A DNA stretch of 56,205 nucleotides, filler included, from Dugesia japonica (lineage: Eukaryota): NCBI GenBank assembly GCA_001938525.1. It is 5 parts of 5 records of this genome, joined end to end, with 100 filler letters (N's around TTAATTAATTAA, not from the genome) between each part and the next. Parts side by side here need not be neighbours in the genome. Positions count along the whole stretch, not along the records: positions 21,681 to 35,670 come from MQRL01487508.1; 4 more parts are not named here. One strand, given 5' to 3'. The number at the start of each line of letters is the position of its first letter. Position 1 is the stretch's first letter. The position numbers and the translations under genes are program-made. The notes beneath the pieces were generated by a model, which was given only the letters and a program-made list of their open reading frames with translations, made no database searches and was not told the DNA's origin. Shown here one piece after another: positions 6,077 through 35,610 of this stretch.

Positions 6077-7374
6077 TTAGGTGTGTGGATTAATTTTAAA
6101 GGTATTTTCTACAAAGTTTTACAAAAAGAAAAGTCGAGAAAAACAGCTGTATTATAAGAAATGGATACAAATTGTTCATTCTAAATATTGATCATCGCTG
6201 GACACTACTCTCTTTCATCTTTACGGCAAAAAGTAGATTTCACGACGAAAGAAGGAAGCATCTTGTGAGGCTATCCAGGAATCCAACCATTTTTTCGTAT
6301 CCTCATAAGAATGAAAACACTGATCCAAAAGGGCATAGGTCATCGATCTGAAGAGGTGAAAATCCGAAGAAGCAATATCTGGGGAATATGGCGGGTGTGG
6401 TAGTATTTCCCAGTTCAGGTTTTCTAAAGTGTCCTTTACAACTTTCCCGTATGTGGGCCAGGGTTGTCATGCCATAAAATAAAGCTGTCGTGTCTTCCTT
6501 TATAATCTAATGTTTTTACCTGTAACTCTTGACTCAGTTGTTTTTTTTGGTGTTTGTAGACTTTTGATGTGATAGTTTCGTTGGGTTTGAGCAGTTCGTA
6601 ATACACGACCCCAAGCTGATCCCACCAGATAGACAACATTAGTTTGACACCATGGATATTTGGTTTGGCAATCGACTGTGATGGTTCTCCCTGTCTGCAC
6701 CATGATTTTCTGCGCTTCGGGTTGTCAAATCGTACCCATTTTTCGTCACCTGTGAGGATACGATGTTAAACGTTTTTCTTTGATGCCTTTGGAGCAGCAA
6801 TTCAAATATAAATTTTTTCAACGGCTCTGGACTTCAATTTATAGGGTAGCCAATTTCCTTGTTTTTGTATCATTCCAATTGACTTCAGGAGTCTATAACT
6901 TGTGCTTCAACTAACATAATGATTTCGCAAGTTCTTCCTGCATCGCAATTGGGTCTTGATTGACTAAAGCCTCCAATTCTATATCATTCACTTTCGTAGG
7001 TTGTCCCAGACATATATTATTCTAAGTATCAAAATCACTACTTCTAAAGCGGCGATACCAGTATTCGCATGTTAAAATCGATGGGCTATATTTTTCATAG
7101 GCTTCTGACAGCATTTGGTGACTTTCCGCAGCGTTTTATTTCAAATTGAAGCCAAAAAGCAAACATTCCTGCAAATGGCTTTTTGTTGGGACAAATATTG
7201 ACATTTTGTTTGCTAAAAATAAAAATATCTTATGAGTATTTTTTAATGAAAATTATTGATTAGTATAATTCGGTAATTGGAAATCACAAGGGAACACAAA
7301 AATTTTGTCCCATTTCATATACTGCGTATAACATCATCAACTGCATGACCTTTAAAATTAATGCACACACCTAA
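6077..7374 (-). mobile_element. Full-length (about 1.3 kb) mariner, Mos1/mauritiana-like, defective
   Basis: 27-bp TIRs TTAGGTGTGTGGATTAATTTTAAAGGT / ACCTTTAAAATTAATGCACACACCTAA (1 mismatch), flanked by TA on both sides. Confidence 0.95.
6176..7204 (-). pseudogene. Mariner transposase with stops and frameshifts
   Basis: MSIFVPTKSHLQECLLFGFNLK, MLSIWWDQLGVVYYELLKPNETI, HDNPGPH, PPYSPDIASSDFHLFRSM. Confidence 0.95.
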
Positions 7375-13045: not shown

Positions 13046-13145
13046 NNNNNNNNNNNNNNNNNNNNNNNNNNNNNNNNNNNNNNNNNNNNTTAATTAATTA
13101 ANNNNNNNNNNNNNNNNNNNNNNNNNNNNNNNNNNNNNNNNNNNN
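13046..13145. other. Artificial contig linker 44N-TTAATTAATTAA-44N
   Basis: Exactly 100 bp; six-frame stop spacer; identical at four sites. Confidence 0.97.
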
Positions 13146-14061: not shown

Positions 14062-14959
14062 CCCAACCAATTTCAAAATTAATAACCAAAATTAATCATC
14101 GCATATTCTTCCAACAAAAACATTTGTAGGGACACTTGGGGTGTAGGTTGTGTAGAATTTATGTCAACTTGAATCGAAATTATAAATAAATTTTACTAAC
14201 AATTTTTTTACTGGAATATATAATAGCAATATAAAATAATTGAAAACAAAATTAACTGAAATTAATTTTTAACAAATTTTATTTACAAGATAAAATATTT
14301 ACTGTTTTTATTTGATTATTTATCAATTCTCCCAAAATTTATATTCAATTTTTTCTGTAGGATGCCAAGCACGTTTGATTTAAATTCTTCAAATTTCAAT
14401 TTGATTATTTCTTTTATATGTTTTATCGGTGGTTCTCAAGATTTTTTAAATTCAAAATTATTATTCTTATTTTTCTGTCAATAATTATTATTGACCATTC
14501 TTGCCATTTTTTAAATATTTTTTCTATTACTATTATACATATACGCGTGTATATGTATATACATAAACAAGTAAGTAGATTGATCAGCATGACCTCACTA
14601 TTTTGATTGATCAATTTTAAACGATTATGATTAGTCAATTCGGAATGATCTTGAAATTTGATGGACAAAAGTAACAAAAAGATAATATTGTTTAAATATT
14701 CAGTAATTGTTCAGTAATTTAATAAGTGTTGTTAGATATGTGGTAAGGACAATCATTTTTTTAATAATTGTAGCTTATTGCAAAATAACACAAAAATGTT
14801 CAGTGTATTCATGAAGAAAATAATTCAGACGATCTAGCATATAGTAATGACGATATAAAACATGATGAAAGCAGAGATTTCGAAGAGAAAGATATTGGAG
14901 CTTTTACATATGATCAAAACACAAACAGACAAGATCATAATTTAAACGACAGACGCTCC

Positions 14960-15370
14960 ACGGCATACATTTCGTCTGTGGAGTCGTTGAATTAAATGCT
15001 GCAAATGCAGGAAATCGAAATGCTATGATGTTCAAGAAGCCAGATGGTAGATGGTGGAGTTTGATTGAATGTTGTGGAAAGATGATAGAGATGTTATTGG
15101 ATACGGGCGCAGCAGTAACGGTGATGTCAGAAGATAAGTGGAGAATGTGCGGAAATCCGACATATCTCTTAGAGGAGCATTTGGTGCTAAAGCAATAACA
15201 TGTTTACGAGAGTTTAAAGCTTTGGTTAGTTGGAATGGAATGATTAAGAATATCCATATTACGTAGTTAAAGACATATAAATTTGTCGGTGGTATGAATA
15301 TTATTTCAGCTTTTGGATTGAAGCTTTTATAGAGAGTTGCAATGAATTTGATAGATTCGGAAGTCTTAGG
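14960..15370 (+). pseudogene. LTR-retrotransposon aspartic protease remnant
   Basis: EMLLDTGAAVTVMSEDKWRMCGNP..LRGAFG..VGGMNIISAFG. Confidence 0.75.
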
Positions 15371-21086: not shown

Positions 21087-21580
21087 TTAGGTCTAAAAGT
21101 TAATTTTGTGGATTTTCTTTGTTTAAATATTTCATTTTATAAATAATAATTTATCAATTTTTTAAAATAAATTTTAGATAAGTATTATTCAAGCTTTTAA
21201 AAAAATGATTGGTATGATTTGTAAAAGTTTAATTTTATTTTGATTCTCATTTTAGTATTACCATGTATAAACCAACTAAAGAGCACTTGTGGCATTCATT
21301 GTTATTATTATTTAACCTAAAGAAAACAACTGCTGAAAGTTACCGTCTAATTCTGGAAGCATATGCCAATTTGGTTTTATCTCAAGACACATGTGAACGG
21401 TGGTTTAACCGATTCAGGAATGGAGATTTTGACTTGAGTGACAAGGTTCGCCCTGGTCAAGCAAAGAGATTTGAAGATGAAGAATTAGAAGTCATATTAA
21501 CTGATTTAACACACAAACACAACAACAGATAGCTAAGCTATTAAATGTTTCTCAACGTGCCATTTCTAGTCGTCTACATC
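21087..21580 (+). mobile_element. 5' half of a second mauritiana-like mariner, cut by a linker
   Basis: TA + TTAGGT.. TIR; ORF 21263 MYKPTKEHLWHSLLLLFNLKKTTAESYR..TCERWFNRFRNGDFDL. Confidence 0.92.
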
Positions 21581-21680
21581 NNNNNNNNNNNNNNNNNNNN
21601 NNNNNNNNNNNNNNNNNNNNNNNNTTAATTAATTAANNNNNNNNNNNNNNNNNNNNNNNNNNNNNNNNNNNNNNNNNNNN
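21581..21680. other. Artificial contig linker 44N-TTAATTAATTAA-44N
   Basis: Exactly 100 bp, same as the other three. Confidence 0.97.
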
Positions 21681-21850: not shown

Positions 21851-22204
21851 AAGGTGGTTGTGGGAGCTGTAATTACAAGTGTAGAGCAGCATGATATTAA
21901 AATAAGTTTAAAATCAGGAAGAGGAGTGATTGTCTCTTAAGTAAAGACAATTAGAAGTAAATTTTTATTCTAGAAAGTAAAACTACAAAATAGCACAAAA
22001 GCAAACCGAAGCGGATTAAGAAACCAAAAAGCCGGACTCTGACAAAACAGATTGCGACTCGGAAAATAAAAAACCACTTACAAGGTCTAACACATCCGGA
22101 TTATCTACCCCAAATTCAATTCTCAAAGAAACCCAACTTACCCGACCCAGGTCATCAAGGAAGCAAAAGAAATCGTCACTCTATTTGGACCAGGAAGAGA
22201 ACAT

Positions 22205-23700
22205 TTGTTCGCTCAAGAAAAAGAATTCGACAAATCAGCCTCCTTATCCAAAACTAAAACTTTAGAAACCATCAGTTCAAACAGTAGTCCGAATGACAAA
22301 GAAAACCAAACTAACCTAAAAACAATATCCAGTAAAACCCCAGAAGTTAGTAACAGATCAAGTGGAATAAGTTATACATCAGAGGAATCAGAAATCATCG
22401 AACTAATAACTAGTAATCAAGAAAACACCGACTCACTGATAATAAAACCAAGAGACTTAGGAAACGAAACACCCTCAACAATAAATAAAAACCCAAAAAT
22501 AGAATTCAATCTCAAAAAAGACAAAAACATGACCACTAAAACTGAAAACCAACGACCGGAGTGGAAAATAAAATTCGATAGCGAATATTTAAGTGGAATA
22601 CCAGAAAAGTTGGATGAATTTATCCAAAATTACGAAATGTATGCCAAAACCTGTGGCTGGGACGAGGAAGCGAAAAGAAAGCGGTTACCAGTTTACTTAA
22701 CGAGAGTAGCCCAAACCGTGTTTTAGGATCACACCAAGGGCATGGAAGCCATCCCCGAAAAATGGGAAGATATAATAAAGATATTGACGGACAACTTCCA
22801 AAATTTAAAACTGACTGGTCAGGATTTCGAGCAATTTACCAACCGGAAACAACAGCGAGGGGAAACCCCACAAGCTTATATGATGGAACTCAAGAGTCGA
22901 GGCAAACTGGCCTTAGGAGATAAACTAGAAGACATTCAAGTGTTAGCTATATTCTTAAATGAATTACGCGACGAGAACGCAAAGCTAATGGTAAAGTGGA
23001 GTAAGCCAGTGACTCAACAGGACGCCTTGGTCACGTTGCGAATTGTAGCAGATAGACCATCCGAACGAATATTCAAAGTAGAAGGACAGACAGAGGAAAC
23101 TACACCGCGGATATCGGATTTCATACCAAACACACAATCTATGATGAAAACCCTGACCCCAGGGCAGGAACGGAACAGCAGAAATGATAGATCTAACTAC
23201 CCCCGAGGAAATGGCGGAGGATTTAATGCACCTCGTCACAATTGGCAAAATAACCGGAATATACAATGTAATTCCTGTGGAAGGAGGGGACATATAGCCC
23301 GAGATTGTAGGAGTAGAGGCAATAATAATAAAAACAATTGATTTTGTACTTACTGCAAGAAAACCAACCACAATGTAGAAACATGTTTTCTGAAAATCCC
23401 CACTGTCTGTTATAAGTGTAACAGAAGAGGTCATCTGGCAAAAGAATGTCCAAACGGAAACCAAAAAAATTATATCCGAAATCCGAATACAAATCTGGAT
23501 AATCTAATGCAGGAAAATGAGAGATTAAGGCAACGAGTAAACCAAAACANNGGACAAGTCAACTTAGTGCAGCAGAATACTTTTGACGACGTGTACCACA
23601 AAGTCCAACAAGAAAATGATTAGCTCAAGTGGCAAAACCAAGATTTGCAGGTGCAGCAGGATAGACTAGGAAAAAGAAACTGGCTAAACGAACCACACAA
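22205..23700 (+). pseudogene. gag: Gag: capsid domain, three CCHC zinc knuckles and a coiled coil; has stops and a frameshift
   Basis: LDEFIQNYEMYAKTCGWDEE..LPVYL, W..I...L...F, RKQQRGETPQAYMMELK, FLNEL; knuckles CNSCGRRGHIARDC, CTYCKKTNHNVETC, CYKCNRRGHLAKEC. Confidence 0.93.
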
Positions 23701-23974
23701 GAATCAATGTAATATGGTCAGAACACATAGACTTATTTATAATTACCGAAATGGAGGACACTCGGAAATGAATACTGATTACGTCACCAGAATTCGAGTG
23801 GACCAATGAAATCATCCATAAAACAACAAAAACATCAATGACAACCGCCGGAAGAAGACGAGTGATGAATCAGTTACTCCGGTTATATCAGCACCCACAA
23901 GTACATGGAAACGTCAAAGCAAACTGGCAGAAAATAATATCAGATTACATCACTGAGCTCTATAAAGAAACTAA

Positions 23975-26900
23975 GTTAGATGATTACAAATTCGAAATTG
24001 AATATGTATGACATAATAACCCGAAGGTAATTCCGAAACGATTAAAGCTATCACTAAAGGGATTGACAGTACGACACTTGAAAGAAGCCATTAACGAAAT
24101 AAAATGGGCGAATTAGACGGTATCAAATGTATAACGGTAAACCCGTTTCTTGATTTACCACCGTTTACCGATCAACATCAGTGGAATGGAAAGTGGAACA
24201 GGCATAGATTGCAAATAGGTAATATAGGAATCAACATTCTTCCCGATGATAAAAATCTAATTTACTACGGGGCACGACCCCATGAAACAACAGTAATAAA
24301 ATTGATAAATCGTGGTTTGGTATTCAGACCACAGATAGTAATTCAAGAAATAGAAACTGATGAGTTATATCATAATCTCGAAGAAAAATTTTTTAAAGAA
24401 ATCGTTCCCACCACGGCTCAAAACTACTTACGAAAACGATTCGAGAAGGTGAGAGTGATGAACTATCCGGACATGAGACAAAATGAAGCATCACGATTAT
24501 CGCTAGCCCAAATTGATGAGATACTAATAGCCTCCAAGAAACTCCATTATACAATTAGGAGGGAAGTATACCTACAGTTGACTAATCGATTGGTAGAGTT
24601 ATTGGAAGTTATAAAATTGGTCACCGATTTTGAAAGTGATTAGACAGAATGGTTACCAGTACATTATGATTGGGTAATAGCCAACATGGGATTATCAGAT
24701 TACCAAGTATTGTTGTATAACCCAGAAGGAAATAAGAAACTGACACTCGCAGGATTAATGGTGGAAGATCTAGAATTAGCACTGAATCGAGCAGGCCATC
24801 CAAATATAACAGATAAGTTCGTATGTACTTCAAGTGCTATAGTAAATTTTAACGCCAGAAAAAGCCATTTGTACGACTTTGGGGTAAATCGAAATCGTAA
24901 TATTGGATAAACACCCTGGTATCGACTACGACGTATGGGTAACGAAAACTGGAAGATCGGCACTGAAAATCATGGGGAAATGGAATACCTATATAAACAA
25001 GAAGTAGAACCTATCAAAACAAAGATACTTTCCACGGTACTGGGAAAGAAGGACAAACTGACAAAGGAGGAAAGGAAGCAGTTATTGATGACGCGTAACG
25101 ATTTCCTCAAACAAGGATTCGAGAGAAAAGAGGGTAAATGCAAAATGATAAGGATGCGGCAAATGCCGTTAAGGGAAGTAGTAGTGATGCGTAAAGTGGA
25201 GGAAATGATTAACAAAGTACAGGTAGAGAAGGAAATGTTACCCCGAGAAACATATTGATGATATATAACGGGTTGGAAATACCGAAAGAAATTGAGGATC
25301 AATGGCTCATGATTAAACAGTAGTATGCCGAAGAAATATTGGCAACGACCAAAATTCAGGACTATAAACTATATTTGAATATAGTTTAAAATGAACAAGA
25401 AATGACTAAGTACAGCCACCTAAGGCCACAAAGAATAACCATAATGGATCTGGCGGATGCCATTACCGATTAGTGGCAAGAGTACGGATTAAACATGGTA
25501 CCTCTATTCATAAACAGCAAATTGGTCGCGACGGATGACGAGGACAAACACATTCCAATGCCATGCAAAACCCAGAGAAATATGCGAATTAGATGTAGAG
25601 GAGGAGCCGCAGATAGCCCAGTCACCAGAACTTGAGGATCGAATGGAAGAAATAACGGAATTATACGTGTCCGAGGTTCTGACGGGTATTAAGTAACAAG
25701 TAAAAGAAAACCAGAAAAAACAGAATATTGATAACCTACCAATAATTACCACAAAATCAGTTGAATTTCCGGAAGGGACGCCGACAATACGTGATATTCG
25801 GATGAACTACACGAAACCTATAACGGAGGAATCCGCCACGTTTCACGCTATCAAGATCTACTAAGAGTAACACGAGAAACTCGACCAGTAGTGAATATCA
25901 ACGTATATTGGAAAATGATGAATAACCTACGAGATTTGGCAATCTATGGACAACTCAGTTTGTGGGCCAGAGCACAATGGTGGAAAGAGAAAAACCTATA
26001 TGAAGAGGAAGTACAAAATACATCCGCTATATCTGACTATTCTGTCAGAGTGAGATACCTCAGCAAAGAATGAAGTATGAAGAAAGTAGATATGATAACC
26101 CTAGAAGGATTAACTATCCGCCATATCAGAAAACCAATCAAGAAATGGTTATGGCCAAAATCAATCAAGTCATATAAAATGCAGGCGGGAGCAACAATGA
26201 TCATACTAGCCAAAAAAGAAGATCACATCTTCCTGTACGATATTAAACCAGGAGAAATCACGGAAATTAAATTATCCCCGCGGAAAATGACAATAGACTT
26301 TCCGATACCAAAAATGCCGGATACAGATCAGCTTATATTCAACATGATGAGTCTTTATATACAGGAAATATTACCAGTGAAAAACGAAGTGAAAAAAACA
26401 CGTTTGGAGAAAATAAAGTGCAAGTAAACATGGTTAGGAATAATAATTTCAAAACCACGGTCATGGTATCAGACGAGGATGAGGAGGAGGAAGAAATCGT
26501 TGAAGACACAGTCAAACCAAGACTATTACCATTTAAACAAGAATTCGTTACCCCTTTTAGTTCCCCTCAAGCAAAACGTATATCAAAGATAATCTCTGAT
26601 TTCTGGTATTTTCTGGAAAGAATACCTAGGGCACCATTTTGAAAGGCATTAAATTTGTTGATGGATTTGTCGAAATATACCAAAATAGCAAAAGAAGAGC
26701 GCGACAAATGAGAATTAGTGCTCAAGCCGTATATTGGTGCAGTTAAGACAAGGGAGAGGATTTCCAGGTCACTATAGAATATCAGACACCGAGTAAAAAA
26801 CCCAGAAAGGAACCGAAATTGGCTCTAATGCATATACCACATTTCAATAGTACATTAGCTTTGGAATTACAGTAAATTATAGAATCACTGGATATAGCTG

Positions 26901-28285
26901 ACCAACATAAAGGCTATATAATCACCAGCGACCATTTGAGATTCCCTATAAAGCTCGAAGGGAAACAACATTTAATGGACATAGGATTAATACCAGGTAA
27001 AAATATCTTTCTCCAAATACAGAAACCGGAAGACTACGCCCCAGGCCCAGTAAAGTACATGGGAGATGTGCTACAACAATTAGAGGATTTGCACGAGCAA
27101 GAAATCAACAGTGGTAAACTGTTTGAAGAAGTCGACGATAGAACAATGGAGATAAATATCGAGTTATGTGAAGACAGTAAAACATGGAGGAGTCTGGCCC
27201 GGGTAATAATGATAATACTACTGACCCTTGAAAAGAATTTAGAATTATTAAGGGATGACACAGTCATACAACTAATCATGAAATTAAATCAGCTACGAGC
27301 CATTAGCCGTATGCTAGGAGACGTAATGAATGCAATATTATATAAAGTAGTTCGAATGATAACTAATGAAGAAGTCGCCTTAATAATCAGATTTCCGGAT
27401 GAAAGTGGAATTCATTGGCAGATCCAAATGAATGATCAATGGTCCAAATTCCGAAAAAGGATTATAAGATTTATGAATAAACAATGTAATCTTTACGAGG
27501 AGGGGACCGGAACACAACCATTATGACAGGAATACGATATAGTACTCTATTACAATCAGGTAATAGAACCAGACCAAATGAGGTTGCCGGTGAAATATAT
27601 GGGAGTTTGGCCAGGTACTAAATTAAAAATCTACGTAACGGCAAAGGAGGAGGAGAGACGGCGACCACGGGTCTCGGAGGAAAAGTGGAAGCAGGAAGCC
27701 AGAGAAGTAGTGGAATGTTATATAGAAGAGATCCATCTATTAGTACTCGCAAGAGCCAAGCTTCCTAAACAAGAACAAAGTAAACAACGAGTGAAGATGG
27801 TAGCAGCTCTGACCAACACACTAATCAAAAATGAGAATCCAGAAGACAATTTACCAAAATTATTCGAATTGCTAGTGGGTGATAAGTTAATAAAGCCACA
27901 GATCATACGTCGATCCAATATAGTCCTACAACACGATCTGGCAGTAGATCTAAGAAAGCTACGACGATTAATTATGGCCGTCAAGGTATCTCATGTATGG
28001 GTTCCGATTCAGCTTAATAAAACTTTGGTTAAATGGCGGAAAGCGGAGATGGGACAAACGACTCCATTAGCAATCAAATTCAGAATAATCAATCCGGAAG
28101 GAGATAGAATTACGGTTAAGATACCAGTATATAATACGGTAAAGCATCTACGAGATAAATTGCCATTTAAGCCACCATATAAACTCTTGGACGAAAATGG
28201 GGTAGTGGACGAAACCACTTCAATTGGGCTAATGAAGATAGATTTAATCAAATCCAATACTTTATGGATTTTCCCAGAATTATGA
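23975..28285 (+). pseudogene. Accessory region with about 7 divergent ubiquitin-like (beta-grasp) repeats separated by helical spacers
   Basis: Recurrent xDYxhxhxY...hxLxGLThRHh...I...DxxLxxYxhxPxxxhxh pattern, e.g. LPDDKNLIYYGARPHETTVIKL, KEDHIFLYDIKPGEITEIKL, LEGKQHLMDIGLIPGKNIFLQ, LPVKYMGVWPGTKLKIYV. Confidence 0.6.
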
Positions 28286-28848
28286 GGTACCCTTACTCGG
28301 AAAGAAGCAGACCCTTATAAAGCAGCAGATAAAACAAGACCAATAATGGGAGAAACCTTAGGGATGTTAAAAGCATATAAACACCGTACACAACTAGTGG
28401 CTAGACAAATATTAAGACTTACAACAGACCAGTCAGGAAGTACAGAAACCTCCCGAGAAACGAAAGGAACCCCTAAAACAACTCAAGATTGGGAACGTGA
28501 AATATTCGGATCCCCATCAGCAGATGAATTAGCAGAAGATGGGAATGAATTGCAAATCACAAGACATTCACCTCCAACGAGAAAAAGTGGAGAACTACAA
28601 GCATATAGCCAACACGAAGCAAAAAATATGATCCTAGCAAGGTAGATTTAGACGAGGAAGATGCATTAGAAGAACAAACATTATAACCAATATTGAGTAG
28701 GATGGCAAAAGAATTGCCATCATTAGTAATGGATGACTTAATGGATACAAACCACCCTTTAGAAATGGAAAATCCTATGGAGACAGAAGAGGAAGAAGTA
28801 CCACCGAAACCAGTGCACACCAGAGTGGATGCAGAAACGATTACTGAA

Positions 28849-28878
28849 CCTAAAAAAAGAGGAAGGCCAAGAACGAAA
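28849..28878 (+). other. AT-hook/NLS motif in a disordered acidic linker
   Basis: PKKRGRPRTK. Confidence 0.7.
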
Positions 28879-29013
28879 CCTCCAGGAAACCTGGAGGAAG
28901 AGGAAGCATTAAAACAAAAGAGACGAGCAACATCAGTAAATCAACAGACGAAGCGAGAATCCAGGAGATGATGACAGACTCATACTGAAGTGGTAATACG
29001 GCAATTATAGCTA

Positions 29014-29388
29014 ATGCTTTATCCAGAGCTAAAGATTTGGATTGGTAAATTTCAACTATCAGATAGTCTCAGACCACTAGCAAAAGAAATAGAAGCAGCC
29101 ATTAAGAAATTTCACGCTACTAAAGGTACTAGTCATGGCACGAGAGACAACTTGGAAGGAGTAATGGATGATTTTTTACAGGATCAGTCAACGAAAGGAA
29201 GAATAGTAGTATCTATAGCCCATTTGATTAATCAAGCACATCTATCAATGGCCAGAAGCAAGCCGTCAAAAAACTTCATTCTAAAGCAGAACAAAATAGT
29301 GCCGTTGATAAAGCATCATGGGGGATGGAAAAAGTTTATTGAGGTCATATGCCATAAGCCTCAACCATCTCATGAAAATGCAACTTGA
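29014..29388 (+). CDS. Bcl-2-family-like domain (part of the decayed polyprotein)
   Basis: BH3-like LSDSLRPLAKEIE, BH1-like LEGVMDDFLQDQSTKGRIVVSIAH, BH2-like LIKHHGGWKKFIE, with family-like spacing. Confidence 0.72.
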   Translation: MLYPELKIWIGKFQLSDSLRPLAKEIEAAIKKFHATKGTSHGTRDNLEGVMDDFLQDQSTKGRIVVSIAHLINQAHLSMARSKPSKNFILKQNKIVPLIKHHGGWKKFIEVICHKPQPSHENAT

Positions 29389-29466: not shown

Positions 29467-31480
29467 GCATTAACAACTACAATACTCTTATTATTCTTAT
29501 TGATGGGCAGAAGTGAAGCCATATTAGCATATGGCTGCGATATGATGCAAGTTGGGAAGGAAGTATTCTCATTAGTAGATACTGAAGAATGTCCGTACGC
29601 GAACCCAGAAAAAATTTCACTCCGAAATAATTCCGTGTACCACCTGTATCAGGAGTCGGATTATTATAAGGCCCAAGTACGCGAATGTATAGTAACAATA
29701 AAGACGTTCATATTCCATTGTGGTTACCACAGTTACACCTCAATAATTGATCCAGGAATGGTAAAACCTCGTACATTTAACGGGACAACAATGTGACGAA
29801 GGATTCACTACAGGTAAAATTACCATCAAACATGGGACTCAAGTTGTCGCCAAAAGGGACATGTAATCGACCAACCAATAGAAGCAGCAGGAAGCATATC
29901 CTAACATATAGACAACTGTGAATATGGTACCTACACTATACGAAGAAAAGTACGGCAGTATGCGGTGGCAATCGAAACTTATACAGTGGAGCTCAAGGAA
30001 TACGAAGCATTCTTTGATGCACAAGATCTGAAAATGAAAGGAAGATCGTATTGTAAAGCAGCGGACGGATCATGTAATACAGGTACATCAACTCTAACAT
30101 ACAAAATAGACCACGAGGACTGCAAGCTAGCTCATCTAAAAGAGGCACTGTCCAATGAATACCAAGGACAGTGGGCTATAGCACCTATTGACCAATCTCC
30201 AAAAAAAGGTAATCTAAAGGATAGAGGAAACGATAAGATAAGGCCCAAAATCATACGATTATCAATGGCACGCAACTCCCACGATGCTAATGTCCTCAGA
30301 ACAGGATGAGACCATCCGCCTAATTAAACGAAATTCTATGTCAAAATGTGGACAAATAGTGTATAAAACAAACTATAAAGGAATATTCGTATCAGAACAT
30401 CGAATGAAAACCCCACAGGCCGCAGTAATGTCACAAGATATCAAATTACATCTATATGCCAATAATAAAATGGACAACTTATTCCACCGGATGCAAAATA
30501 ACATCGGACGAATGTACCACGATCTCATACAAAATGAGTGCAGGTTAAATAAGAAAATACTGAAGACAAAGTTAGCAATGGCGGTTACGAATCCAGATAG
30601 TGTCACCCCACTAATTCCCTTGAAAAAAGGACAATTTGGTCTAGTACTAGGAGAAGTAATGTACCTATATTACTGTAAGGCCGTAGATGCAGAGTTTTCG
30701 TCCAATTCAAAACATTGCTATAATGAAATAGAAATTATCCATAACAATGAAAAACGTTATGTACAACCAATTACTCGAATAATATCACCACTGGGTTATA
30801 GGCCGAATATCATAAACTGCTCCAATGTATTTGGACCACAATACGTAATGACAGACGTGCCATGGATAGGATTTCCACAACGTATGGCAGTTGGAGTTGA
30901 GCCAAGAAAATTCTCAAAGTTATGATTTAATGGCGGTATGCAGTTTTCTCCGATTGATGTAAATAAAGGCGGAATTTACAGCAGGGAAGATCTAGAGAAA
31001 TCTAGGGAATATATGCTGTTTCCAGTCTGAAGAATGCAAATTCTATCAAATATAGTACAATTAACCTGTGGAACAAACATAGACGGGCGCGTAAATTATG
31101 ATGCATTATTGTCACCCGATCATTTCCAGAAAGCCACGGAAAACGTCATGCGGAAAATGTGGGGCTGATTTATACTATTTGGTCAGGCAATGGCAGGATT
31201 GCTGGGAGTGATTTTGATAATTTCAGGAGCACGAGTAGTGATTACCCAATTGTTTGCATGTTTCGACATATACAAAAGAGAAAAGAAAGTGAATTAGAAA
31301 ATGCTAACCGGAATATTCCCATTCTTAGCCAAAACCATGGTGCTTAATAGCCACTCAAAAGAGATTGACAGGGTAAAACGATATATCCGTAAGCTCGGGC
31401 AAAAAAGAGGATCGGACAAGAAGGTTATAATGCAACTTCGATTGTTGTGTGAAGAAGAAAATATTGTATTTTAGCCAACT
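29467..31480 (+). pseudogene. env: Envelope glycoprotein, chuvirus G-like (class III fusogen type), with frameshifts and stops
   Basis: Signal ALTTTILLLFLLMGRSEA, then ILAYGC..FSL..EEC, LYQESDY..VRECIVTIKTFIFHCGYHSY, LYANNKMD, MYHDLIQNECRL, GEVMYLYYCKAV, CYNEI, YVQPITRII, GGIYS; C-terminal TM near 31160-31270. Confidence 0.85.
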
Positions 31481-31974
31481 CAAAAACAAAGGTTTAAGTA
31501 CAAAAGTGAAAGTAGCAGCAGCAGCGATGATGATAGAAAAGAGAGCAGTGGAACGCCACATTTACCCAGTTATAAAACCGCCATGGAATACGATGCGAAG
31601 TTTAAAAGACAACAATATGAAAGAATCAGTAAAATGCAACGACTAAGAAATGCATAAAAATTCGTAGGAAATGAAATTACACCAGCACCAGCACAAATGT
31701 ACTACAACGCCTATCCACAACATGGTTGGCAACCCATGAATCAACAGCCACAACAGGTATGGGCACCAGGTCTCATGTACAACACTCCTTATATGAGTCC
31801 ATCACAAGCTCCTAATATGGCATTATTAACAAAAAATAATCTAACCACCATTGACAGAAGAACTACGGACCAAAATTTGCGTTCTCCGAATAACCAGATC
31901 ACTGAAAACGATAAATTAGAAACCCAAATCGTATGTATGATGATTTATCAGAAAGCGAAACTACTACAAAAAAG

Positions 31975-32215
31975 GATAAAAATTGACAGAAGATTGGTAA
32001 TAGCAATTATCGATACGGCAGCAAGTACGACTTTAGTTCACAAAAGAATATTAGAAGATTATCGACAATTCCGAATAATCATTACTAAAGGAGTTATCAT
32101 CACGGCTTCTGAAGAAAAGATATCACCTGTCGGGGAAGTAATATGTGCAATAGAAAGTGACGGAATCCGTCTATGGCATAAAGTGCCTACTGGGATTAGA
32201 TCTCTTACCACGTCT
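31975..32215 (+). pseudogene. Aspartic protease domain 1 (DTA variant)
   Basis: IKIDRRLVIAIIDTAASTTLV..IITASEEKISPVGEV..CLLGLDLL (last motif after a frameshift). Confidence 0.8.
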
Positions 32216-32559
32216 ATGCTCAGAGGGAATACTAGATCTGAGGAAACTAACAATACGAGAAATTCACGATCAGGAATACACACCACAAGGTTACTAAAAG
32301 ACCAGGATAATAATTGCACGGAAACGACCAACAAAATGGAATCAAACAACCCCTAACCAACGGCCTCAACTCTCGTCATGCAGGGGTGAACAATATAATT
32401 CGAATCAAGGTCGTCGAAAAACCACCAATACCTCCATTATGATAAGAGACTATTGAATACGGTTTCAGGAACGGGAACCAAGGTGGAAAGAGAAAAAACC
32501 ACAGAATACAAATTATAACCCTTTGGATATGGTGTACGCAGGTCTCGGCGGTGGATCTG

Positions 32560-32840
32560 TGTTAACAATTATAGTTAAAATCAACGGTAGACCTACAACT
32601 GCTTTATTGGATACAGGAGCAACAATCTCGTTGCTATCAATAGAAGAAATCCCGATAACAGAATATAAAACATACTACTCACCAATACCACAGCAGATGT
32701 GGCAAACCGGAGTAGACTTAAAATTTTTGGAGAACTAACATGTGAAGTAGAATATTTGGATAACAAAATTAAGCACAACATGATAATAGTAGAGATGGCT
32801 GGACAGTGCATTTTGGCACGGACATTCTCCCAATTCTGAT
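32560..32840 (+). pseudogene. Aspartic protease domain 2 (canonical DTG)
   Basis: VKINGRPTTALLDTGATISLL..VANRSRLKIFGEL..CI(L)GTDIL with frameshifts. Confidence 0.88.
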
Positions 32841-32939
32841 GAAAAATGGCATATTGAACTTCTCAACGTTACGGTTACAATCTCTGGAGGGATATACTCA
32901 CGTTAAAGATCACGAAGTATTTACAACAGAGGAAATATT

Positions 32940-33800
32940 GGTATGTGTACAGCTACAATGCATACCATTCCGTTAACAGACGAAACCCCGGTTAAACAAA
33001 AACAATATGCAATGACTGTGGAAAAGAAGGAATTTGCAAATAAGGAAACAGCTAATTTAGTGAAAATCGGTGTAATAGAACCCAGCTGCTTGCCATGGCA
33101 GTCCCCAGTGGTATTAGTGGATAAGAAAGATGGGACACAACGATTCTGCATTGATTACCGAAGATTAAATGCACAAACTAAGAAGGACATATATACGTTA
33201 CCAGACATCAATGAATTGCTACAATCATTGTGTAATGCCAAAATATTCACTACATTGGACCTGCGAAGTGGGTATTGGCAGGTACAGATTAAACCAGAAG
33301 ATAGGGAGAAAACAGCTTTTTCTACAGGCAAAGATTTATATCAGTTCATCCGCATGCCATTTGGACTCACTAATGCACCTGCCTCATTCCAGAGGATGAT
33401 GAATTATGTAACACATGGTATCTCGCAATGTATGGCATACATTGACGACTTGCTGATATATTCACTAACGTTTGAAGGACATCTCAATGATTTACATAGT
33501 GTGTTCATTCGATTACGAAAATGGAATTTGAAAGTGTAACTTACCAAATGTGAAGAATAAAGTAACGTATTTTGGTCACTTAATATCCGATAAAGGAAAG
33601 GAGCCAGATCCGAGAAACACCGAGAAAATCAGAAATCTAGCACCTCCTAATTGTGTGCTCAAAATACAAAGGTTTTTAGCCTCGCAAATTACAACCGCAA
33701 ATTTATCAAATACTTCGCAAAGATTGCAAAACATATACAAGAATTGGTCAAACAGGATACCGCATGTATATGGGGACCGGAGCAACAACAAGCATTTGAA
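32940..33800 (+). pseudogene. pol: Reverse transcriptase, Ty3/Gypsy type
   Basis: HTIPL, PWQSPVVLVDKKDGTQRFCIDYRRLN, LDLRSGYWQ, KTAF, RMPFGLTNAPASFQRMM, YIDD. Confidence 0.97.
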
Positions 33801-33819
33801 ACGTTGCGGGACAAATTAT

Positions 33820-34230
33820 TAACTGCACCAATTCTGGTGCATCCAGATTACAAAAAGCCATTTATATTAGCCACTGACGCTAGTGGATATGCGATGGGTG
33901 CTGTATTAAGTCAACTGAATGAACAAGGTAGAGAAAGGGTAATAGTATATTTTAGCATATTTTAGCAAGAAAAAGAGCAGAGTTAAATTACAGCACTACA
34001 GAGCGAGAAATAATGGCTATTATTAAAGCCACTAAACATTTTCGATCACTCATACATGGTCACAAAGGTGTTAATCTATACGGATCACTTACCAATCACT
34101 TTTATGGCTCAGAAACCATTACGATGGAATAGAATGGCAAAATGGCAATTAGCAATGCAGGATTATTGCCCTCTATTAAATTTTAAAACGGGTAAAGCCA
34201 ACATAAATGCCGATTGTCTGTCGAGAATCG
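33820..34230 (+). pseudogene. pol: RNase H
   Basis: APILVHPD..PFILATDASGYAMGAVLSQ, NYSTTEREIMAI, IYTDHLPI, GKANINADCLSR. Confidence 0.95.
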
Positions 34231-34529: not shown

Positions 34530-35610
34530 TTAGTCATTCTTAAAGCAAGACGGGACAAATTACTCGAACAATATCACAATGGAGTACTAGGAGGACACAT
34601 GTCCCATAAGAAAACCGAGTCAAATTTAAGACAGAAATACTACTGACCATACATGACGGAATCAGTAAAGGAATGGATCGCTAAATGTCTGGTATGTGCT
34701 GCCAGAAGAGGAACAGGCAAACGAGTAAAAGCATTATTAAAACCAATTGCCGTCCCCGCAGCACCTATGGAAATAATCGCCATGGACGTAGTTGGACCGC
34801 TATCACCAACGCTGAGCGGGAATATATATATATATATACTAACAATCATGGATTACTTGTCAAAATTTCCAGAGGCATTCACTATGAAAAATCAAAAGGC
34901 AACCACAATAGCAGATATTCTAGTACGAAAATTTTTCAGCAGATATGGCACACTCATGAAAGTATTGAGCTATCAAGGAAAAAACTTTATGAGCAACATA
35001 CTGGCACAGATATCAAGCTTTCTCTGGATACATCAATTATGGACATCGCCTTATCATCCTCAAACAGACGGACTAACGGAACGATTTAATAAAACATTGA
35101 TCAATATGCTGTCTAGTTATGCACAGAAAGAACAGAATAATTGGGANNNNNNNNNNCAGCTATGTCTATTTGCATATCGAATAAATGTGCACCCAGCTAC
35201 AAAATACACTCCATTCGGTCTTATGTATGGCAGAAAGTGTAACATGCCAATTGATTTAGAGTTTTAGCCACCCATAACTCAATACCAAGACGAAACGGAT
35301 TTCGCTGAAAATTTGAAAGAAACTAAGCAGAAAATATGGAAACAGGCCAAGGAGAATGTAGGATTTTACCTAGAAAGCTATAAGGATTTGCACGATAAAA
35401 CTGCAATGCAACATTCATTTGAAAATGAAGACATGGTATTGATCAATTTTTTGACACTCATAGATATTTGTGTTGGCACTAGTTTGAAATAAAAAAGGCC
35501 ATGACAAAGGCCCTACGAAGTAATTGAGGTAACCGAAACCAATCTCAAAGTTCGGAAAAAAGGAAATCTCTTAGTGAAACCTAAAATATACCACACCAAC
35601 TTATGTAAAA
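34530..35610 (+). pseudogene. pol: Integrase (HHCC, DDE core with second D mutated to Y, GPY module)
   Basis: YHNGVLGGH..CLVC, MDVVGPL, DYLSKF, SYQGKNF, PYHPQTDGLTERFN, GPYEVIEV. Confidence 0.96.

Follow-up and report, generated by a model that had tools for sequence, protein, structure and literature searches.

The question raised by this locus is whether a chuvirus-like glycoprotein sequence lying upstream of the pol region of a retroelement in the planarian Dugesia japonica is a recently acquired env gene, as the first-pass annotation had proposed, or an old and integral part of the element that carries it. The window, i.e. the whole stretch of DNA that was analysed, is 56,205 nt long, and the sequence encoding this glycoprotein (hereafter Env) lies in a decayed Ty3/Gypsy element of about 14 kb with the order gag-3xCCHC, accessory region, BCL2-like domain, Env, PR, PR and RT-RH-IN (Table 1). 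A Gypsy element as the carrier and a non-arthropod host had both been anticipated; the former is borne out by the order of the Pfam domains and by a Ty3-G match in the PDB, and the latter is likely.

Table 1. Features of the element and of its Env region, in positions of the window
Feature	Position	Strand	Evidence
Gag, low-complexity N-terminal part and capsid-like region, broken by a stop	22091..23260	+	Retrotrans_gag E 0.0072 on 22586-23002, stop read as X
Three CCHC zinc knuckles (nucleocapsid)	23267..23449	+	CX2CX4HX4C at 23267, 23345 and 23408; zf-CCHC E 2.6e-5, 6e-7
Accessory region, ~1,700 codons with numerous stops and frameshifts	23800..29010	+	GC and A-skew as in element; related contigs in every bin
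Likely ubiquitin/SUMO-like module (weak support)	28064..28282	+	12.2 bits, relatives-only profile
BCL2-like domain, directly upstream of and in frame with Env	29068..29343	+	Relatives-only profile E 2e-7
Signal-like hydrophobic segment, likely internal signal	29467..29538	+	KD19 1.67; core without preceding ATG; relatives alike
Class III (chuvirus G/herpes gB-like) Env ectodomain, pseudogenised; class by homology	29521..31165	+	PF24664; profile matches; gB via profile and P0006 fold
Env TM anchor, weaker second hydrophobic segment, start of cytoplasmic tail	31166..31474	+	KD19 2.31 and 1.09; PF24664 positions 544-578, E 0.009
First retropepsin-like domain, degenerate, DTAA motif, in frame of Env C-half	31973..32200	+	tblastn to P0178 protease E 3.5e-6; Pfam E 0.19
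Second retropepsin, DTGA motif, frameshifted	32535..32900	+	RVP E 1.5e-7
Reverse transcriptase and RNase H, Ty3/Gypsy type	32934..34210	+	RVT_1 E 2e-27; RT_RNaseH_2 E 1e-22
Integrase (H2C2 zinc domain, rve core); element cut by gap at 35671	34540..35650	+	Integrase_H2C2 E 2e-6; rve E 2e-9

All eight of the motifs from which a cysteine-rich ectodomain had been recognized are present where they had been placed, and the Env span (29467-31474, about 669 codons) agrees with the approximately 650 codons originally given. Two of the motifs, AYGC (29527) and CIVTIKTFIFHCGYHSY (29686), are read in frame 1, and the other six in frame 2, namely YANNK (30455), QNECRL (30530), GEVMYLYYC (30650), CYNEI (30716), QPITRI (30764) and GGIYS (30968). 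About three frameshifts, on either side of a short segment at ~29770-29860 and at ~30200, and five internal stops (29902, 30923, 31028, 31166 and 31295) interrupt the coding sequence, and this copy of Env is a pseudogene. Four of the six stop-free env pieces matched the Pfam family PF24664 (Monjiviricetes_fusion; E 1.4e-16, 0.013, 4e-35 and 0.0092), two of which (E 1.4e-16 and 4e-35) passed the curated cut-off of the family. With a profile built from 14 relatives whose sequences are unbroken (two being partial), matches were obtained in frame 1 (29476-30180, profile positions 7-243, E 1e-65) and in frame 2 (30227-31381, profile positions 256-636, E 9e-126). Moreover, when the alignment was matched by reading, each of the 14 cysteines conserved among the relatives had a counterpart in the Env of the element, one of them in the short frame-2 segment near 29790.

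Hydrophobic segments are found at both ends of Env (29482-29538, KD19 1.67; 31166-31222, KD19 2.31). The C-terminal one agrees with the transmembrane (TM) anchor of the first-pass annotation, and the N-terminal one supports its signal peptide in part: the hydrophobic segment exists, but no in-frame ATG precedes its core (the first ATG is at 29503), and for this reason it looks like an internal signal sequence of a polyprotein. The same signal-like segment occurs in relatives, there within a longer ORF. In-frame stops also lie just outside Env, at 29386 and 29464 before the signal-like segment, where they separate Env from the BCL2-like domain, and at 31472 and 31655 past the tail.

As to the type of glycoprotein, a family Env profile of 100 sequences, three of which were Env pieces of the element, matched herpesvirus gB only in the PDB (33 of 33 matches at E<=1, best 5e-4). 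An AlphaFold (AF2) model of the relative P0006, which is 39-46% identical to the three main Env pieces of the element, had a pLDDT of 81.6 and a pTM of 0.58. This model matched HSV-1 gB with E 3e-14, all 39 among the matches listed being herpesvirus glycoproteins; among viral models, its matches included glycoproteins of chu-like, xinmo- and qin-viruses besides that of Tacheng tick virus 4 (E 3e-42, 21% identity). Since matches to herpesvirus gB and chuvirus G were obtained with both the family profile and the folded relative, the Env of the element is predicted to be a class III fusogen, an assignment transferred by homology from the profile and the model of P0006. The comparison with chuvirus G and class III fusogens, suggested as a check when the locus was first annotated, therefore returned significant matches (best, the PF24664 match at E 4e-35), and the description as a chuvirus-like class III glycoprotein stands on PF24664, on the gB profile matches and on the P0006 fold.

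The element block (~21.7-35.67 kb) has a GC content of 38-39% and a strong A-skew, and the surrounding flanks have 24-29% GC. It is bounded by runs of N at 21581-21680 and 35671-35770, and paired N runs likewise occur at 13046-13145 and 44926-45025. In both gaps whose letters were read, two N runs surround a 12-base spacer, TTAATTAATTAA; we take this arrangement to be an assembly join marker and not biology. Among the repeat families listed, no long direct repeat pair was found around the element. Within the block, Env (GC 0.385, AT-skew 0.21) has the composition of pol (GC 0.38, AT-skew 0.21), both being unlike the flanks, and neither a composition break nor host-like flanks were found at the Env borders. 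A position of Env between gag and protease is confirmed; its novelty is not, since the layout has been published (PMC6431247 and PMC13524379, in the parts available). Gag does lie upstream, but it ends about 6 kb away, and the immediate neighbour of Env is the BCL2-like domain. The gag region itself was matched by tblastn to the Gag of relatives (P0155, E 1e-8; P0005, E 5e-9).

A BCL2 profile made from the element and three relatives matched Bcl-xL with E 1.6e-5, all 60 among the matches listed belonging to the Bcl-2 family; the BCL2-like piece of the element alone gave no match in the PDB, Pfam or Atlas, so the assignment is a profile-based one. No Pfam match reached the cut-off in the accessory region (23800-29010). 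Near its 3′ end, one candidate ubiquitin-like module (28073-28162) scored 12.2 bits, compared with at most 5.8 for shuffled and 4.9 for reversed controls. Atlas feature matches to ubiquitin/Rad60-SLD clusters (0.83-0.85) provide a lead only, and Pfam ubiquitin did not match 28064..28282 on its own. An array of about seven ubiquitin-like repeats, suspected by eye in the accessory region, was rejected as unproven: a window-only profile and Pfam found none, and just this one module exceeded the shuffled and reversed controls. A mixed profile of the element and four relatives did match ubiquitin, probably owing mostly to those relatives. Other segments of the region look ubiquitin-like by eye, one of which ends near a Gly-Gly at ~25605. 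No homologues of the piece 27527-28282 were found among longer proteins, and a single-sequence fold of 26876-28642 (pLDDT 33.6) was unusable.

Downstream of Env, the two protease motifs are located at 32006 and 32604, and the succession RVP, RVT_1, RT_RNaseH_2, Integrase_H2C2 and rve is that of Ty3/Gypsy elements (Metaviridae). The best PDB matches of the RT had E 1e-41 and 1e-40, the latter being named Ty3-G Gag-Pol. A Pfam scan of the element pieces found this Gypsy-type set and no BEL-typical families. Compared with its relative P0182, the element lacks about 130 codons between PR and RT, at 32943-32946 (~32945), which is consistent with a deletion in this copy because contigs of the sequencing run X6 show loose ends at 32942. 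In the relatives, the PR-RT spacer (~130 residues in P0182) has a weak dUTPase match (E 0.066) in one of the two spacers compared, and no match to the PDB was found.

A phmmer search with a 210-aa stop-free Env piece returned 665 proteins at E<=0.001, of which 14 reached E<=1e-30. Thirteen of these best 14 were scanned, and in eight the ORF continues past Env into PR and/or RT. In a quick maximum-likelihood Env tree of 150 rows (the element and 149 of 176 proteins, 20 having been dropped as short and seven having no match), the element falls within a 24-row clade with an SH-aLRT support of 96; this tree, like the RT tree, is unrooted. PR and/or RT occur in the Env ORF of 14 of the 23 relatives in the clade (six are short fragments), and Gag-like or BCL2-like sequence lies upstream of Env in three; among proteins outside the clade, PR or RT was found in none of nine scanned. 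Two named chuviruses, Hardyhead chuvirus and Guangdong red-banded snake chuvirus-like virus (named among 10 look-ups), are placed outside, and a more careful tree of 10 rows set its eight element rows apart from them with 100/100 support. Among seven shared relatives two groups are resolved, and for these the Env tree concurs with the RT tree; in the latter the D. japonica element sits, unplaced, on a long branch. Judged from these comparisons, the nearest relatives of the Env are retroelement polyproteins rather than viruses. A Chuviridae endogenous viral element was accordingly discarded as a candidate, Env grouping with retroelement polyproteins and the two named chuviruses falling outside.

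The closest overall relative, P0182, consists of one 4,099-aa ORF with the order BCL2-like-Env-PR-RT-RH-IN and is identical to the element at 47% of positions in the C-half of Env and 44% in pol. P0153 encodes Gag-CCHC-BCL2-Env-PR-ankyrin within one ORF, the single ORF of P0023 encodes Env-PR-RT-RH-IN and begins with a Gag-like N-terminus, and tandem proteases are common in the clade. P0151, one ORF of 4,844 aa, contains up to seven retropepsin-like stretches together with ankyrin and C2H2 zinc-finger motifs, and in P0151, P0154 and P0182 the ORF runs on for ~600-1,500 residues past integrase, with hydrophobic segments that are possibly a second membrane protein; the extensions of P0151 and P0154 contain additional protease-like motifs. 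One polyprotein of the clade with the order Env-PR-RT-RH-IN (P0004, HBK71150.1) appears in the databases as a hypothetical Flavobacteriaceae protein from a MAG and most likely represents animal DNA contaminating a bacterial bin. Two more PF24664 lineages, the P0033 and P0107 clusters (757 aa and ~1,139 aa, with several members each), form a separate clade, distinct from the named chuviruses as well as from the element group. Viral contigs, metagenome contigs and prokaryote genomes yielded no related loci, and there was no phage match.

The Env stretch is partly present in 11 of the 24 sequencing runs listed, with at most 43% of its words, and no RNA run is among the carriers listed. Two contig sets were aligned to the whole element (23,442 and 17,921 pieces, mostly 85-95% alike), one from a run guessed to be DNA and one of unrecorded kind; depth in them is not equivalent to copy number. 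In both sets, related contigs cover 30 of 30 bins of the element, those of Env included. The element belongs to a repeated family, with Env present throughout it, and since related sequence extends across the whole element, Env is not a one-off insertion; the scenario of a gene present in this copy only, raised in the first-pass annotation as a refuting outcome, is thereby contradicted. Two RNA runs yielded 63 and 8 reads, all partly aligned and none 95% alike, and are uninformative for this copy. Outside the element the flanks are AT-rich and strewn with mariner; a scan of 71 ORFs found no host gene. Such flanks, the Burro-type layout and the resemblance to the Schmidtea errantivirus rows make a triclad flatworm the likely host. 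Mariner transposase remnants are located at 21233-21529 (+) and 6439-6765 (-) (HTH_48 E 3e-17, Transposase_1 E 2e-24), and other retroelement fragments comprise an RT-like piece at 47123-47535 (+) and an aspartyl-protease-like piece at 14941-15195 (+; E 3e-4).

Taken together, the locus is very probably a decayed copy of a repeated, giant Burro-type Ty3/Gypsy element, in which a class III Env would be an in-frame domain of a polyprotein of ~4,500 residues with the order Gag-accessory-BCL2-Env-PR-PR-RT-RH-IN. Because the Env of this copy has flanking stops and repeated frame changes, the single ORF is deduced from relatives that are 30-47% identical. In the relatives Env is an in-frame domain and not a separate gene. 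One could still argue that the lineage and the old Env are as described but that Env is expressed in the manner of insect errantiviruses, as a gene of its own made by read-through or translated from a subgenomic or spliced RNA. The in-frame stops before the signal-like segment (29464) and past the tail (31472, 31655) would fit such an arrangement, and PMC13524379 treats GAG, ENV and POL as ORFs, polyprotein or in-frame wording being absent from the part available. We nevertheless consider this unlikely: the hydrophobic core has no preceding ATG, similar stops are scattered over gag, env and pol alike, and therefore indicate decay, and in P0182 and 13 other members of the clade the frame stays open from Env into PR/RT.

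If Env is such an internal domain, synthesis of the polyprotein could be pictured as follows. Translation would begin in the cytosol with Gag and the accessory domains, after which the internal hydrophobic segment following BCL2 would thread the Env ectodomain into the ER, signal peptidase cleaving immediately ahead of the conserved A-Y-x-C start. Transfer would then be stopped by the C-terminal TM segment, which would return PR-PR-RT-RH-IN to the cytosol, where these domains would stay on the Env tail until freed by the element's own retropepsins. A trimeric Env might, by analogy with gB and chuvirus G, let enveloped particles fuse with another cell. These topology steps are drawn from established membrane-protein biogenesis and are laid over the observed domains, their order and breaks, the ORFs of relatives and the modelled fold of one of them. 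A literature search, weak in that subscription journals, bioRxiv supplements and figures lay outside it, found nothing on the membrane topology or processing of a Gag-Env-Pol polyprotein of this kind. The D. japonica copy itself can make none of the proposed products.

A fairly recent, independent capture of a Jingchuvirales glycoprotein gene by a Gypsy element, upstream of pol, which was the central proposal of the first-pass annotation, is largely refuted and in our judgement very improbable. It could draw on the PF24664 membership, on the best viral structural matches being glycoproteins of chuviruses, xinmoviruses and qinviruses, and on the published capture by mosquito BEL/Pao elements (PMC7642597, in the part available), to which the first-pass annotation had also pointed; furthermore, the trees are unrooted and the ultimate origin of Env may be an RNA virus. 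Against it, the best viral identity is ~21% (for the folded relative) as opposed to 34-48% for the top retroelement-type matches, Env lies in a clade of retroelement polyproteins with the two named chuviruses outside, its composition is the same as that of pol, and the layout is already published and common to many divergent elements. A passive endogenous viral element that landed inside a dead Gypsy copy is the least credible reading, for in spite of the heavy decay of the copy and the many chuvirus-like glycoprotein EVEs reported near Gypsy fragments without clear capture (PMC10084718, in the part available), it is refuted by intact relatives collinear in the order BCL2-signal-Env-PR, by related contigs covering the Env bins like the rest of the element, and by Env borders that have neither host-like flanks nor a break in composition. 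The association of Env with Pol in the Burro-type element is likely to be an ancient one that was transmitted vertically and did not arise by recent capture.

That Gypsy elements of non-arthropod hosts can have a chuvirus-like env ahead of pol was already published, and this element adds a family, not a concept; it is regarded as a family member rather than a new kind because the layout has been described for planarian elements. More speculatively, and with the odds somewhat against it, Burro-type elements and the gB-type errantiviruses of flatworms might be one lineage, whose Gag, BCL2-like domain, class III Env and Pol would form a membrane-threaded polyprotein comparable to that of flaviviruses, with Pol on the Env tail. 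Should this be true, Pol would hang on the cytoplasmic tail of Env instead of on Gag, in a 1:1:1 stoichiometry and with a packaging route not known from any other reverse-transcribing element; release of the enzymes would fall to the tandem proteases, and survival of the producer cell would be secured by the BCL2-like domain. Two questions are sharpened by the element: how an LTR element could assemble infectious particles when a translocated glycoprotein splits Gag from Pol in one chain, and whether such particles move from cell to cell in a regenerating animal.

Among known systems, the planarian elements Burro and GYPSM1 are the most similar. According to the available part of PMC6431247 (which cites Grohme 2018 and Jurka 2007 for the Burro elements), Env lies in frame between BCL2 and PR in Burro/GYPSM1, and Burro ORF1, of 4,873 aa, encodes a Ubi2/SUMO-like motif besides three CCHC and BCL2, its env preceding PR in the same frame. 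Burro1-4 and GYPSM1 of dugesiid planarians thus share with the element a three-CCHC Gag, a long accessory region, a BCL2-like domain, env before PR, and RT-RH-IN; the coding span of the element (~13.5 kb) compares with the size of Burro ORF1, and Burro copies with stops and frameshifts, decayed like the element, are reported there too. In the element the three CCHC knuckles in Gag, of which Burro-type Gag has two or three, and the BCL2-like motif directly before env (by profile) are both found; the Ubi2/SUMO-like feature upstream of BCL2 is represented by the one module above controls, the window-only profile being negative and the mixed profile with relatives positive; and the single giant ORF around env is broken, while it is continuous in P0182, P0153, P0023 and others. 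The MATH, BIR and ankyrin motifs of Burro were not found by Pfam in the element pieces. The element differs from Burro, whose total length with LTRs exceeds 30 kb, by its two protease motifs, by the absence of the dUTPase-like PR-RT spacer from this copy and in having no LTRs in the assembly. It is therefore of Burro type, i.e. it works like Burro, and is not filed under Burro1-4, because MATH, BIR and ankyrin are undetected and the PR-RT spacer is missing in this copy. The Env described in PMC6431247 is, in the part available, not termed class III, and the class of the Burro1 env itself is not certain, since mononegavirus glycoproteins, gypsy Env and F-like proteins are all named there as relatives of Burro env.

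The errantiviruses of Nematoda, Bryozoa and Platyhelminthes are the second point of comparison. As set out in the available part of PMC13524379, these have a gB-type Env only and the order GAG-ENV-POL, and six gB-type errantiviruses of Schmidtea mediterranea (Smed_errantivirus_1-6, cysteine group C1a) are given in the supplements; the likeness of errantivirus Env to Chuviridae envelope genes is noted there, an ancient association is argued, and 114 arthropod elements with a chuvirus-like G beside Gypsy pol are counted. Like these GAG-ENV-POL HSV/gB-type elements, the D. japonica element combines a Ty3/Gypsy pol with a gB-type Env upstream of it, flanked by signal and TM segments. Env is located between gag and pol and is predicted to be gB-like class III, the fold being taken from the relative P0006. 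The listed gB-type loci span 14.5-18 kb. By eye, domain I-II motifs are visibly common to the element Env and the supplement rows for gB-type errantiviruses, including an exact run of 13 residues shared with the Smed_errantivirus_5 row, and, as regards the C1a cysteine-bridge pattern of Platyhelminthes, the 14 conserved cysteines of relatives are all present. The likeness to Burro1-4 and to the Schmidtea errantiviruses is thus judged from descriptions and by eye, not from a computed alignment. Unlike those elements, the broken copy studied here would fail the intactness filter of PMC13524379.

More distant are the non-canonical nematode ERVs (Sacco et al. 2022, as described in PMC13524379), which are metaviruses with an RNA-virus-like glycoprotein before pol in another host phylum. 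Anakin, a mosquito BEL/Pao element with chuvirus G, carries a glycoprotein of the same broad family as the element Env; it is BEL/Pao and not Gypsy, it is read as a capture within Culicidae, and no BCL2 domain or accessory polyprotein is described for it in the available part of PMC7642597. In the parts available, an arthropod survey reported no clear Gypsy capture together with many chuvirus-like glycoprotein EVEs beside Gypsy fragments (PMC10084718), and PMC12440569 lists both BEL/Pao and Gypsy captures. Chuvirus G (Jingchuvirales) and herpesvirus gB share with the element Env the PF24664 family, the class III fold (according to the profile and the P0006 model) and conserved cysteines; identity to the folded relative is ~20% for chuvirus and 10-12% for gB, and here Env sits inside a retroelement. 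No mention of Burro, in-frame fusion or a polyprotein occurs in the main text of PMC13524379, in the part available, so that the element links two descriptions left unconnected there, Burro and the gB-type errantiviruses, and points to class III for the Env that this lineage carries in frame and next to BCL2.
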